Assembly (NCBI RefSeq): GCF_045037415.1
Contig: NZ_CP173438.1
From: Escherichia coli
GTDB lineage: Bacteria; Pseudomonadota; Gammaproteobacteria; Enterobacterales; Enterobacteriaceae
Length of the DNA: 64,000 nt
Strand: one strand, 5' to 3'
Positions 58,401 to 64,000 of the stretch are shown here, piece after piece (position 1 is the first letter of the stretch; each line of letters begins with the position of its first letter). The position numbers are program-made.

Positions 58401-61400
58401 ACAAAACCGTTCGGGTGAAGTCGCGCTGGAGAAAATTGTCACTGCCAATCCGGCGGTTATCATCGCGATGAACAAGCGCGACGCGGATGCCATTCTGAGT
58501 TCTCCGCAGTGGGCAAGCGTGGACGCGGTCATTCATCATCGCGTTTACGTTAATCCGAAAGGAATGTTCTGGTGGTGCCGTGAAACCAGCGAAGAGGCGC
58601 TGCAATTTTTGTGGCTGGCGAAAACGCTTTATCCTGCGCGATTTGCTGATGTGGATATACGCAAAGAGACGCGTGAGTTTTATCGGCAGTTCTTTGGCCT
58701 GACGTTAAGCGATGCGCAGATGAGCGATGTGCTCAATCCGCCGCGCTAACGGAGGCTGTGAAAAACCATGACTGTATTGGAAAGTACGCTGTCGGTCGAG
58801 AACCGCTATCGCCAGCTTTTTCGCCAGCGTCTGGTAATACTGGCGGTTATTTTTATCGCTATCATTGCTTCGCTGCTGCTCGATTTCACCCTCGGCCCCT
58901 CAGGGCTCCCTTTACATTCGCTGATAAAGACTTTGATGCATCCGTCCGGGGCGACTAACGGCATGCGGGTTATCGTTTGGGACATCCGTTTGCCCTATGC
59001 GCTGATGGCGCTCCTGGTAGGAATGGCGCTGGGTTTGGCCGGGGCAGAGATGCAAACTATTCTGAATAACTCCCTCGCCAGCCCGTTTACGCTTGGCGTT
59101 TCGTCGGCGGCGGCCTTTGGCGCAGCGCTGGCGATTGTTCTGGGCATCGGTATTCCCGGCGTTCCCGAAAGCGGGTTTATACCGGCAAACGCTTTTCTTT
59201 TTGCGCTCCTGTCCGCCCTGCTGCTCGATAGTCTGACCCGCTGGACGCGCGTGCCGACGTCGGGCGTTGTGCTGTTTGGGATTGCGCTGGTGTTTACCTT
59301 CAATGCGCTGGTGTCCATTATGCAGTTTGTCGCCGATGAAGATACTTTGCAGGGCCTGGTGTTCTGGACGATGGGCAGCCTGGCTCGCGCATCATGGGAG
59401 AAACTGGCGGTGCTGGCGGCGGCGATGGCGATTGTTTTACCCTGGTCGCTGCGTCGTGCCTGGCAGCTTACCGCGCTACGCCTCGGCGAAGAGCGGGCGA
59501 TGAGTTTTGGCATTGATGTTCGCCGTTTGCGCCTGGGTTCCCTGCTGCGCATCAGCCTGCTGGCGGCCCTTTCGGTTGCGTTTGTGGGGCCAATTGGCTT
59601 TATTGGCCTGGTTGCACCGCATATTTCCCGCCTGTTGCTGGGAGAAGATCATCGCTTTTATTTGCCCGGAAGCATCCTTATCGGTGGGCTGGTGCTATCG
59701 CTGGCCTCGGTAGCGTCGAAGAACATCATTCCCGGTGTCATTTTACCGGTAGGAATTGTTACCTCGCTGGTAGGCGTTCCGTTCTTTCTGAGCATTGTAA
59801 TGCGTCATCGAGGGAGTATGTCATGAGCGGGCTTACGATTAATGCGCTGTGCGCCGGTTACGGCAAACGGCGGATTATTGAGCATCTGTCGATTTCTACG
59901 CTGCCGCGCGGCGAAGTCACTGTACTGCTGGGGCCTAATGGCTGCGGTAAATCAACGCTACTGCGCGCCCTGGCCGGGCTAAATCGCGCCAGTGGCGAAG
60001 CCTGGCTGAATGAAGAGAATCTCTTATCGCTGCCGTTTGCTCGTCGGGCTGAAAAAGTTGTGTTCCTGCCGCAGTCCCTGCCGCAGGGCGTGCATTTACA
60101 GGTGCTGGAGTCGGTGGTTGTCGCCCAGCGCGCCTCCGGCGCCGGGCAAAATCAGGCGCAGGCTATAGCGCTGCTCGAAGAGCTAGGCATCGCACATCTG
60201 GCAATGAACTACCTCGATAGCCTGTCCGGCGGTCAGAAGCAGCTGGTGGGGCTTGCACAGTCGCTTATTCGCCGCCCCGAATTATTATTGCTGGATGAAC
60301 CACTGAGCGCGCTGGATCTCAATTATCAGTTCCATGTGATGGATGTTGTATCGCGCGAAACGCGAAGACGCAATATGGTTACGCTGGTCGTCTTACACGA
60401 TATCAATATCGCACTGCGGCATGCCGCCCAGGTCATCATGCTGAAAGAGGGGAAACTTATCGACAGCGGCGACCCGCAAACGGTGATCCATGCAGAGAGC
60501 CTTGCGCAGGTATACGGCGTACGCGGGAGAGTTGAACGTTGTGCTCAGGGAAGATCGATGGTGATAGTGGATGGTGCAATCGAAAAATAGTCGGATTAAC
60601 GTGGTTGCTTCAGCCTCAGGTAAAGATCAATAGGAAGTCTGTAATGCAACATATAGACCGCCTTAATGTCATTAAAGCACTTGTGCTTCTAGAAGATGAG
60701 CAGATTGTTCGTTTTAACATCGCTGCGAACGATAACGCCTCGCAGATCCACATGCTCGTTGACGGTCTGGGCGTCGGGCTGACACATGAGCCTGTCGCTG
60801 CCGGAATGATTTCGCACCGGACAGCTTGTCACCGTTCTAGGCAACATGACAGACCTGCGCATTCCTATTTCTATTATCTATCCGCCTACCAAGTTGCTTA
60901 ATGTCAGGCTAAGGCCCTTTAATGACTGGATTTCAGACCGATTTTCTGGACAGCCGAGCGGGTAAATCGCAGTACACTGACAGCTAGACAATAAAGCTCC
61001 GGTTCATGTTTGAACCATGTGTAGTGAATGTCCGCTGTTCGCTCACAACGGACCTTCAGTTCAGCCGCTCCGGCCGCTTCATGCCATGAATGTACGCAGC
61101 CAGTCAGAATATTAAGGTGCGGATTTCAGTTCACTTGTCAGCGCCAGTGACACAAGACAGTAATGACCAACAATTTGGTATTGACACAACAAGTTGCGGC
61201 CCCGGTTCGTGGAGGAGATTAAACGACTGTAGCCGGGGCCACTGAGTAAGCGTCAACGGAGCACCGTATTGACGCTTATTTATTGGTGAGTACTACGTTC
61301 CATGGCAGGAGTTCGTCAACTCGGTTGGAAGGCCATTCCGGCAGTACGCTCAGGATATGGCGCAGATACGCTTCCGGATCGATACCGTTCAGACGGCAGG

Positions 61401-64000
61401 TGCCGATCAGCCCGTACAACAGTGCTCCACGCTCGCCGCCGTGATCGCTGCCAAAGAACATAAAGTTTTTCTTTCCGAGACAGACTGCACGAAGCGCTCT
61501 TTCCGCAGCATTATTATCCGCCTCCGCCAGACCGTCATCACTGTAATAACAGAGGGCATCCCACTGATTCAGTACATAGCTGAACGCTTCGCCCAGTCTG
61601 GATTTTTTCGACAGCGTACCATTCTTCTCCACCATCCATTCATGCAGCGACGTCAGTAACACTTTGCTTCGCTGCTGCCTGACGGCAAGACGCTCTGACT
61701 CCGGTAATCCCCGTATTTCATCCTCGATGGCGTACAGTTCACTGATTCGCTTCAGGGCTTCTTCTGCCGTCGCACTTTTGCTGCTGATGTATACATCGTG
61801 GATTTTTCGCCGGGCATGGGCCCAGCACGCAACTTCTGTCAGTGCACCACCTTCACGTTCTGCACTGAACAACCTGTCGTAACCTGTGAACGCATCCGCC
61901 TGCAGGATACCCCGGAAGGGGCGGAGGTGTTGCTCCGGGTGTTTCCCCTGCCGGTTCGGCGAGTACGCGAACCAGACCGCTGGAGGAGATGACGAACCCA
62001 CATTGCGATCATCCCGGACATACGTCCAGATACGCCCTGTTTTCGCCTTTTTCTGACCCGGTGCCAGTACCTTTACCGGTGTGTCATCAGTGTGAACCTT
62101 GCGGGTGTTCATTACATAACGGTACAGGGCATCATTCACCGGTGTCATTAACTGGCAGCACGCGTCAACCCAGTTGGAGAGTAAGGCCCGGCTCAGTTCG
62201 ACACCCTGGCGGGCAAAGATTTCACTCTGACGATACAGTGGCAGATGTTCGCAGTATTTTCCCGTTAACACGCGGGCAAGTAATCCGGGGCCCGCGATAC
62301 CACGCTCTATCGGGCGGGACGGCGCCGGTGCTTCAACAATACAGTCACATTTTGTACAGGCTTTTTTTACCCGTTCTGTGCGGATCACTTTCAGGGCACT
62401 GCTCACCAGTTCCAGCTGTTCAGCGCTGACTTCCCCCAGATAATCCAGCTCACCGCCACACTCCGGGCAACAGCTTTCTTCTGGCTCCAGGCGGTGTATT
62501 TCACGGGGAAGGTGTGCCGGTAACGGACGACGATGGCGCGACTGTCGCAACTGGCGGGGAACCTGAGGATCGTCTTCCCGCCCACTGTAACGATCGCTGT
62601 CCTGTTCACGTTGTTTCAGCAGAGCCTCAGCCAGTTCAACTTCACGACGCAGTTTTTCAGAACGGGTACCGAACAGCATCCGGCGCAGTTTTTCTATCTG
62701 AGCCCGCAGATGTTCTATTTCCCGTTCATCTTCTTCGATCTTTTCTTCGGCACGTGTCAGTGCAGAGCGCAGGAAGGCTTCCGTCTCTTCAACCAGACTC
62801 AGTTGCTGGTCTTTCTGACGGAGGGCTTCAGCCTGCTCAGAGAGCAACCTTTCCAGCTCTGCGATGCGAATGAGGTATTTCTGACTCATGACCGTTTTTA
62901 TAATGCGGTCAGGAGTTTTTTACAACATTGTCAGTGAGTTACGGCTGGATGTTTTTGGCTGACGCCAGTCCAGCTTATCGAGGAGCATTGCCAGTTGCGA
63001 GCGGGTAATGGATACCTTGCCGTCACGTACCGCAGGCCAGATAAACTGGCCTTCCTCCAGGCGTTTGGTGAACAGGCACAGACCATCAGCATCAGCCCAA
63101 AGAATTTTGACGGTGTCACCCCGTCGGCCACGGAAGATAAACAGGTGACCGGAGAAGGGATTATCATTCAGCACATGTTGTACCTGTTCTCCCAGTCCGT
63201 TGAAGGATTTACGCATATCGGTAACGCCGGCAACGAGCCAGATACGGGTACCTGATGGGAGTGAGATCATCTTCCCCTCCCGGTCAGTTCACGGATCAAC
63301 ACTGTGAGCAGCTCTGGCGATGGATTTTCCAGCGTCATGTTACCGTGACGGAATTCCACCTTGCAGGAACTGGCACTGACTCTGGTCTGAGTGGAAGTGG
63401 ATAAAGACGGCGCAATGGCCGCCACAGGTTCTTTCTGCTCATCCGGCGTTATTTCTACAGGTAATAATTCAACGCCAGTGTCAGAAGAGGTCGTTACCGG
63501 AAGACGCCGCGAAACACGCCCTTCGTTCTGCCAGAGCCTGAGCCATTTGAAAATAACATTATCATTGACGTAAGCGACTCGTCAGAACCGTATTGATATT
63601 TACTGAGAGCTCAGATCAACTTTCCAGGGCAACAGATCGCGTACCCGGTTTGCCGGCCAGTCCTGGATATGTTCAATGACGTAACGCAGCCACTTTTCTG
63701 GCTCCACATTGTTCAGACGGCATGTGCCGATCAGCGAGTACAACACCGCCGCATGTTCACCACCGCTGTTGGAACCCGCGAACATCCAGTTTTTCCGGCC
63801 TACGGCCACTCCCCGTAAGGCGTTCTCTGCGATGTTGTTGTCGATTTCCACCCAGCCATTACTGCAGTACACGTTCAGTGCATCCCACTGTTTCAGCAGG
63901 TATGCGAACGCTTTTGCCGTATCTGAGTGACGCGACAGTGTTTTCATCTGTTGCTGTATCCAGTCATACAGTGACTGCATCAGTGGCGCGGCTCTGGCTT

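Follow-up and report, generated by a model that had tools for sequence, protein, structure and literature searches.

At its right edge, a 64,000-nucleotide stretch of an Escherichia coli chromosome (hereafter the window) carries two insertion sequences (ISs) of the IS66 family that directly abut each other. The first is ISEc23, of which nucleotides 1-2324 of 2532, counted from the right terminal inverted repeat (IR), occupy positions 61246-63569 on the minus strand. The second is an ISCro1-like element on the same strand, whose right end begins at 63570. Our analysis suggests that ISEc23 has most likely been interrupted rather than truncated, through a strain-specific, nested insertion of the ISCro1-like element, ~2.7 kb in length, into its tnpA gene. 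The initial annotation had described two divergent IS66-family elements lying end to end, and this description is borne out by Pfam matches, by the exact terminus at 63570, and by a DNA identity between the two of ~62-69%. It had also stated that the first element has lost its left IR and the start of tnpA. That is correct for what lies within the window; as a claim of truncation it is most likely mistaken, given that the element is intact in close relatives and that 13 comparable junctions in other genomes are nested. The feature is real but ordinary: a known IS at a known site of sequence type 131 (ST131), most probably hit by a very common ISCro1-like element, along with a relic that is shared with K-12.

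Judged by its sequence, the window is part of an O25b ST131-type E. coli chromosome. Positions 1-63570 differ from strain THO-003 by a single mismatch, and in a megablast search of 5426 complete E. coli genomes, the collection to which the genome counts below refer, many O25b:H4-ST131 chromosomes contained positions 40000-63570 as one uninterrupted match of 100% identity. At least 80% of this 24-kb query was found at one place and in the native arrangement in 493 records. All of the matches to relatives end at window base 63570. At the same site, the ST131 relatives carry an intact ISEc23 that is 2532 bp long, encodes a TnpA of 141 aa, is annotated as "IS66-like element ISEc23 family", and has a left end reading ...GGTCAGTTTACGCTTAC. 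In THO-003, the intact copy is flanked on both sides by the 8-bp direct repeat GCCACTGA. Our knowledge of the left IR and of the GCCACTGA duplication thus comes from the intact copy at the identical site in these relatives. Their island extends at least 10 kb past ISEc23, through a hypothetical gene, IS100 fragments, ISEc20, and further island genes, and in the close relatives the ~10 kb to the right of the intact ISEc23 contain no ISCro1-like copy.

The portion of ISEc23 that lies in the window is well preserved. It starts at 61246 with the terminal sequence GTAAGCGTCAACGG, immediately preceded by the right copy of its target duplication, GCCACTGA (61238-61245), and its right terminal IR, GTAAGCGTCAACGGAGCACCGTAT (61246-61269, minus strand), agrees at 20 of 24 positions with the left end of the intact copy. 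Next come two intact genes on the minus strand: tnpC (61276-62889), which encodes a 537-aa DDE transposase (Pfam DDE_Tnp_IS66, E = 9e-98, with zf-IS66, LZ_Tnp_IS66, and DDE_Tnp_IS66_C), and tnpB (62920-63270), which encodes a 116-aa IS66 accessory protein (TnpB_IS66, E = 1e-36). The latter is not the TnpB of IS200/IS605 elements, and the note given by the Prokaryotic Genome Annotation Pipeline (PGAP) agrees. Beyond tnpB, and overlapping it by 4 nt, is a 3' fragment of tnpA (63267-63569, minus strand) that comprises codons 42-141 and the stop codon, as established by comparing its translation with the intact 141-aa TnpA; this fragment has no Pfam match. IRs of the IS66 family are imperfect and begin with 5'-GTAAGCG. 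The first element has IRs of this kind, an IS66-type TnpC, an 8-bp duplication, and genes in the order tnpA-tnpB-tnpC, with the 5' part of tnpA outside the window. Its name rests on the PGAP naming of copies that are 100% identical to it over 2326 nt (WP_000080195.1, "ISEc23 family transposase").

Set against intact ISEc23, the window copy is thus alike in nucleotide sequence (100% over 2324 nt), in gene order, and in the GTAAGCG start of its IR. It differs in that tnpA is split after codon 41 and that the left 207-208 bp, consisting of tnpA codons 1-41, the upstream region, and the left IR, are absent from the window. The missing codons encode the N-terminal part of TnpA, to which the residues immediately preceding the VNDNVIFKW motif belong. 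When aligned with the intact copy, the window copy breaks off between nucleotides 2324 and 2325 of the element, at the boundary of codons 41 and 42, where base 63570 (G) fits either element.

On the other side of the break, the ISCro1-like element (63570-64000, minus strand) starts at its exact right terminus, GTAAGCGACTCGTCAG. Before it runs off the window, it contributes the IR GTAAGCGACTCGTCAGAACCGTATTGA and the last 126 codons of tnpC with a few further in-frame codons, ending at a stop at 63600. The 132 codons present, from the C terminus of TnpC, match DDE_Tnp_IS66 (profile positions 204-283 of 284) and DDE_Tnp_IS66_C, and this IS66-type TnpC together with an IR, GTAAGCGACTCG, that begins with GTAAGCG identifies the second element as a member of the IS66 family too. 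All 430 of 430 nt compared are identical to many E. coli chromosome and plasmid copies that PGAP assigns to the ISCro1 family, a likeness to ISCro1/IS679-type IS66 elements that concerns only the last 431 bp of the element, the part in the window. The same 430 nt occur at 99% identity or more in 1823 records, and one full 2699-bp copy differs at 1 position in 431. Full copies elsewhere measure 2697-2699 bp, have the ends GTAAGCGACTCG...GAGCCGGTTAC, and are flanked by 8-bp duplications; a full copy encodes TnpA (225 aa), TnpB (115 aa), and TnpC (523 aa). We write "ISCro1-like" instead of ISCro1 because the label was set by PGAP naming. Among GTDB representative genomes, the exact 30-nt right end occurred once, on a contig that belongs to a Clostridiales metagenome-assembled genome (MAG).

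Interruption or truncation of ISEc23

The break in ISEc23 coincides exactly with the first base of the terminal IR of the second element. A break at an exact IS terminus is a signature of transposition, one that homologous recombination or the collapse of a repeat would not produce. Homologous recombination between the two elements is also excluded by their divergence. A global alignment of their first 430 nt gives ~62% identity and the best local stretch 69%, and the longest exact run that they share is only 12 nt; their TnpC C termini have 51% protein identity. We therefore rejected recombination between the abutting elements as an origin of the junction.

Two transposition events could account for the present arrangement. 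In the first, for which the relatives provide the evidence, ISEc23 (2532 bp) transposed into a CP4-44-like island and duplicated the 8-bp target GCCACTGA. In the second, which we infer for the window strain, the ~2.7-kb ISCro1-like element would have transposed into ISEc23, in the same orientation, between codons 41 and 42 of tnpA. From the 8-bp duplications seen in analogous cases, the target of this second insertion is predicted to be TCATTGAC (63562-63569). Such an insertion would split tnpA and displace the left IR of ISEc23 by ~2.7 kb. The left end of the ISCro1-like element, ...GAGCCGGTTAC, would be expected near the window-equivalent coordinate 66268 (~2699 bp in total), and TCATTGAC + GCCATTTTCACGTGC... 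is predicted directly after it. At greater length, the order predicted after this left end is TCATTGAC, then GCCATTTTCACGTGCAATCTG..., the last 207 bp of ISEc23 ending with ...GTTTACGCTTAC, and then GCCACTGAAATGAAGAATTC. The remaining 207-208 bp of ISEc23 would resume ~2.7 kb past base 63570, after the second copy of TCATTGAC. If tnpA is required for transposition, as Han and colleagues reportedly showed for IS679 in 2001, an ISEc23 copy with a split tnpA should not move by itself.

Comparable junctions in other genomes are informative about which kind of event to expect. We found 13 independent cases in which an ISCro1-like end abuts internal sequence of ISEc23 or of an ISEc23-like element (loci L016, L017, L018, L007 [PK8276], L008/L015, L033, L034, L038, L039, L040, L041, L042, and L044), and no truncation is among them. 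Twelve of the cases have the remainder of ISEc23 directly beyond an ISCro1-like element of 2697-2699 bp or, in L008/L015, beyond a 4523-bp insert. For L018 (A30), all that could be found was an ISEc23-type left IR at some distance, past an IS3 that is inserted into the ISCro1-like element. Duplications of 8 bp flank the insert in eight analogues, as read from the printed junctions of L016, L017, L007, L008/L015, and L034 and from exact 8-nt BLAST overlaps in L038, L040, and L041. Another four (L033, L039, L042, and L044) have BLAST overlaps of 8-19 nt, consistent with an 8-bp duplication. The duplicated sequences include GGTTGTGA in CS5L, AGTTCAAC in 2013C-4991, CGTGAAAA in L007, GAACTGGC in L008, and GGCTTTCC in ML775. 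Because the analogues are all simple nested insertions, the ISEc23 of the window is, by analogy, probably split as well, with its missing 207-208 bp just past base 64000.

Several observations count against a nested insertion. The window ends before the far side of the second element is reached, which means that the nested structure and the accompanying duplication were deduced and not seen directly. The exact junction was found by megablast in none of the 5426 complete genomes and in none of 72,556 plasmids, and exact-pattern scans did not recover it from GTDB representative genomes or from metagenome contigs of the Joint Genome Institute (JGI). When the products of open reading frames (ORFs) at the junction were looked up, the 52-aa truncated TnpA led to other disrupted copies of ISEc23, none of them in the context of the window, and two antisense junction ORFs had no record. 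Furthermore, if the source was short-read data, an assembly path through the repeated ISEc23 could join the flank at this site to the junction of another copy.

An argument can be made that the truncation is genuine. The ISCro1-like element may have inserted to the right of ISEc23, after which an adjacent deletion by intramolecular transposition, or a later deletion, removed the left end of ISEc23 together with neighboring island DNA, such that the ISEc23 of this genome would truly be without a left IR. A deletion and a simple insertion leave the same kind of single IS-end junction, and the relic at 41454, described below, is itself an earlier internal truncation of an ISEc23-like element. Yet we consider this course of events unlikely. 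Starting from the state of the relatives, with ISEc23 intact and the ~10 kb to its right free of ISCro1-like copies, one insertion suffices, while a deletion requires two events; and truncations are absent from the 13 analogous junctions. ST131 strains do carry copies of the ISCro1 family, so that donors for an insertion were available.

Even less probable, in our estimation, is an assembly artefact, in which the chromosomal ISEc23 would be intact and the junction of another copy, for example one on a plasmid, would have been threaded through the collapsed repeat. That the junction is found in no other genome or plasmid of the collections searched would fit such an error, as would the several ISEc23 copies that ST131 strains hold and the ISEc23/ISCro1 pairs that occur elsewhere in them, including one on a plasmid of strain S7. 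Nevertheless, the ISEc23 sequence in the window matches the chromosomal ST131 copy with 100% identity but has 5 differences from the single plasmid copy used for comparison, and the window itself shows no sign of a draft assembly. Moreover, a misplaced junction would still be a genuine transposition junction. Interruption by a nested ISCro1-like element is therefore the explanation that we favor.

No cargo gene is affected, and the TonB-dependent receptor and ABC transporter genes that adjoin ISEc23 are the same as in the ST131 relatives. The practical value of the junction is that of a strain marker. It also carries a warning for annotation, in that an element cut by the edge of a window looked truncated when it is probably only interrupted.

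An inverted relic shared with K-12

A second sequence related to ISEc23 lies in the opposite orientation at 41454-41613 (plus strand). This 160-nt relic of an ISEc23-like right end, recognized by Pfam DDE_Tnp_IS66_C, is made up of the final 42 codons of tnpC along with the terminal IR. With a repeat finder, it was found to be an inverted match to positions 61245-61404, complementary at 155 of 160 positions (97%), with five mismatches and a longest perfect run of 50 nt. The relic adjoins a 5'-truncated gene for a GTPase of the EutP/PduV family (41203-41453, minus strand; PduV-EutP PF10662, profile positions 86-142 of 143). What remains of this gene is an 84-codon C-terminal piece on the opposite strand, where PGAP annotates a 183-nt EutP/PduV coding sequence. 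The initial annotation had noted an inverted remnant that truncates a small GTPase gene. Both the remnant and the truncated gene exist as described, but the coordinates are to be corrected from 41452-41611 and the identity from ~95%. For neither the two abutting elements nor the remnant is the resemblance a matter of chance.

The distribution of the relic speaks to its age. The relic and both of its flanks, a 760-bp stretch made up of the EutP fragment, the IS66 remnant, and a DUF957 fragment, were found in one piece in 3167 of the 5426 complete genomes. This stretch is present at 99.5% identity in the K-12 derivatives J53 and XL1-Blue, which do not have the ISEc23 insertion of the window. In the K-12 derivatives, the relic lies at the end of prophage CP4-44, with tmaR on one side and yeeW-cbtA-cbeA on the other; the IS66 fragment and the EutP-like pseudogene at this end are the K-12 pseudogenes yoeD and yoeF. 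Compared with the tmaR-proximal end of CP4-44 in K-12, the window has the same 760-bp stretch and the same neighbors (tmaR, yeeW, cbtA, and cbeA), with no difference of substance in the relic. Since it occurs in thousands of genomes that are without ISEc23, the relic is older than the ISEc23 insertion and independent of it. It is an old and widely inherited sequence that predates the arrival of ISEc23 in ST131, and it is no partner of the present ISEc23.

It had been proposed that the two inverted copies bracket the accessory region between them and could mediate its inversion or further deletion. Bracketing is contradicted by the history of the copies: the relic is old and shared with K-12, ISEc23 has its own target duplication, and the island continues past ISEc23, from which it follows that the two do not delimit an accessory region. 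A composite transposon made of the relic and ISEc23 was rejected for similar reasons, as the relic is a one-ended stub of 160 nt without a transposase and ISEc23 has a duplication of its own. The resemblance to a composite transposon or an invertible segment consists of two related IS sequences in inverted orientation around 19.6 kb. Unlike the parts of such a system, one of the copies is a stub that is present regardless of ISEc23, the copies differ in age and distribution, and no inversion was seen in 5426 genomes. Deletion through the inverted pair was rejected as well, because inverted repeats have the wrong geometry for it.

Inversion itself could be looked for in related genomes, as the initial annotation had advised. 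A synthetic inversion junction, built from positions 41154-41613 and the reverse complement of 60945-61244, was matched in 0 of the 5426 complete genomes at a coverage of at least 80%; the best matches covered only the native 61%. A positive control of identical design, querying the native junction, matched 3167 genomes. It is thus extremely improbable in our judgment that the two copies recombine with each other so as to invert the 19.6-kb accessory segment or rearrange it in another way. The arms, 160 nt in length with 97% identity, contain uninterrupted matches of as many as 50 nt. Since RecA-dependent recombination in E. coli calls for ~25 nt of perfect identity, a rare inversion is physically possible. 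Against this stand the missing inversion junction, the 493 records in the native arrangement, the inability of inverted repeats to produce deletions, and a relic that is older than ISEc23 and found in thousands of genomes without it. The initial annotation had allowed that an alignment might show the copies to be too divergent for recombination. This is so for the two abutting elements, which share a run of just 12 nt, but not for the relic and ISEc23, with their run of 50 nt. The relic is best described as a possible but so far unused substrate for inversion.

IS66-family elements in and beside each other

The junctions assembled for comparison raise the question of whether IS66-family elements are drawn to one another. 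Somewhat speculatively, such elements may prefer resident IS66-family elements as targets, and insertions may be concentrated in a hot zone within the 5' portion of ISEc23 tnpA. We regard this as a lead and not as a finding, and our doubts outweigh our confidence in it. It is based on two roughly unbiased censuses of the complete E. coli genomes, each of which used a chimeric query of ISEc23 nucleotides 1-2316 and ISCro1-like nucleotides 1-2316, one census for each relative orientation. Same-orientation pairs of ISEc23 and an ISCro1-like element no more than ~2.8 kb apart were found in 111 records (83 genomes), and opposite-orientation pairs in 102 records (94 genomes).

Insertion sites were mapped from the best 60 rows of each census, with coordinates counted from the right IR of ISEc23. 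Among these rows, there were 11 independent insertions of an ISCro1-like element in ISEc23 or an ISEc23-like element. Starting from the right IR, they lie at nucleotides 470-477 (L044), ~492-499 (L033), 774-781 (L040), ~1583-1604 (L034), 1629-1636 (L038, strain M70), and 2156-2164 (L039), followed by 2329-2336 (PK8276, L007), 2350-2357 (L041), 2362-2369 (CS5L, L017), 2374-2381 (2013C-4991, L016), and 2499-2506 (L042). Four of the 11 fall inside the 53 bp from 2329 to 2381, for which a rough scan statistic gives P ~0.01. Three more sites are in or beside this zone but were found by biased routes: those of the window (2317-2324), A30 (~2323-2328), and L008/L015 (2371-2378). Smaller clusters are apparent near nucleotides 470-499 and 1583-1636.

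Not all of the evidence points toward a preference. When contexts of ISCro1-type elements were collected without bias by way of TnpB, 0 of 10 were inside another IS66 element, which indicates that a preference, if real, is not strong in absolute terms. In addition, insertions into ISs are neutral and so survive preferentially. Our search of the literature on ISEc23 and on IS66 target preference returned nothing relevant. If mutual targeting and the tnpA zone prove to be true, they would offer a starting point for understanding how targets are chosen in a family whose mechanism of transposition is poorly characterized, and mutual targeting would account in part for the accumulation of IS66 elements in islands and plasmids.

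Reciprocal insertions were also observed. ISEc23 or an ISEc23-like element is inserted in ISCro1-like elements at nucleotides 2149-2156 (L003), 396-404 (L035), 2350-2357 (L036), and 1985-1993 (L045), and three of the four sites are in or at the edge of the ISCro1-like tnpA. In the ST131 strain S7 (L032, NZ_CP107128.1), ISCro1 lies one base outside the right IR of another ISEc23 copy, beside an aldose 1-epimerase gene. The ISCro1 duplication there is ACAAAAAC and that of ISEc23 is CAAAAACT, the two targets being offset by 1 bp. In M70, ISCro1 is inside the same aldose 1-epimerase-adjacent copy of ISEc23, at the nucleotides 1629-1636 listed above; this locus is common to S7 and M70. Counting the window strain along with S7 and M70, ISCro1 has thus hit copies of ISEc23 on three independent occasions, possibly all within one strain background.

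ISEc23 has a second site in otherwise identical islands, 49 bp further on and in the same orientation, in isolate 30859_5#29 and others (window 61238-61246 compared with L001 6246-6296, hits H15-H25). There, its own 8-bp duplication is AGTGAATA instead of GCCACTGA, which implies either two or more entries of ISEc23 into this short stretch or a local hop. In strain 2013C-3277 and ~26 similar genomes (L037), an ISCro1-like element, ISEc23, and ISEc8 lie in a row, and a 28-nt inverted stub of the ISEc23 left IR directly adjoins the right IR of a full ISEc23.

Other features of the window

From the start of the window onward, the gene order is that of the colanic-acid and O25 O-antigen clusters, his, sbcB, dacD, sbmC, yeeA, tmaR, and the CP4-44-like island. 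The cargo of the ST131 island past the relic comprises ISEc12, a trio of dynamin, RdcB, and patatin genes, and the TonB-dependent receptor with its ABC transporter, whereas K-12 CP4-44 has Ag43 and yeeR instead. The trio (50150-54503, minus strand) encodes a patatin-like phospholipase, an RdcB-family protein, and a 794-aa dynamin-family protein. In PADLOC, it gave weak partial matches only (LeoBC, 3e-5; phospholipase effector, 1e-4), and these genes may or may not have a role in defense. ISEc12, an IS21-family element with istA and istB, splits a hypothetical gene of the island at 47184-49486 (minus strand), and a copy of IS200C lies between plaP and sbcB at 35379-35837 (plus strand); both positions were taken from the annotation of an ST131 relative. 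Finally, in the colanic-acid cluster, the wzxC-wcaK intergenic region contains two tandem copies of a 193-nt unit (2963-3348; 91% identical), and BLAST suggests a third register of the repeat that is partial and more diverged.

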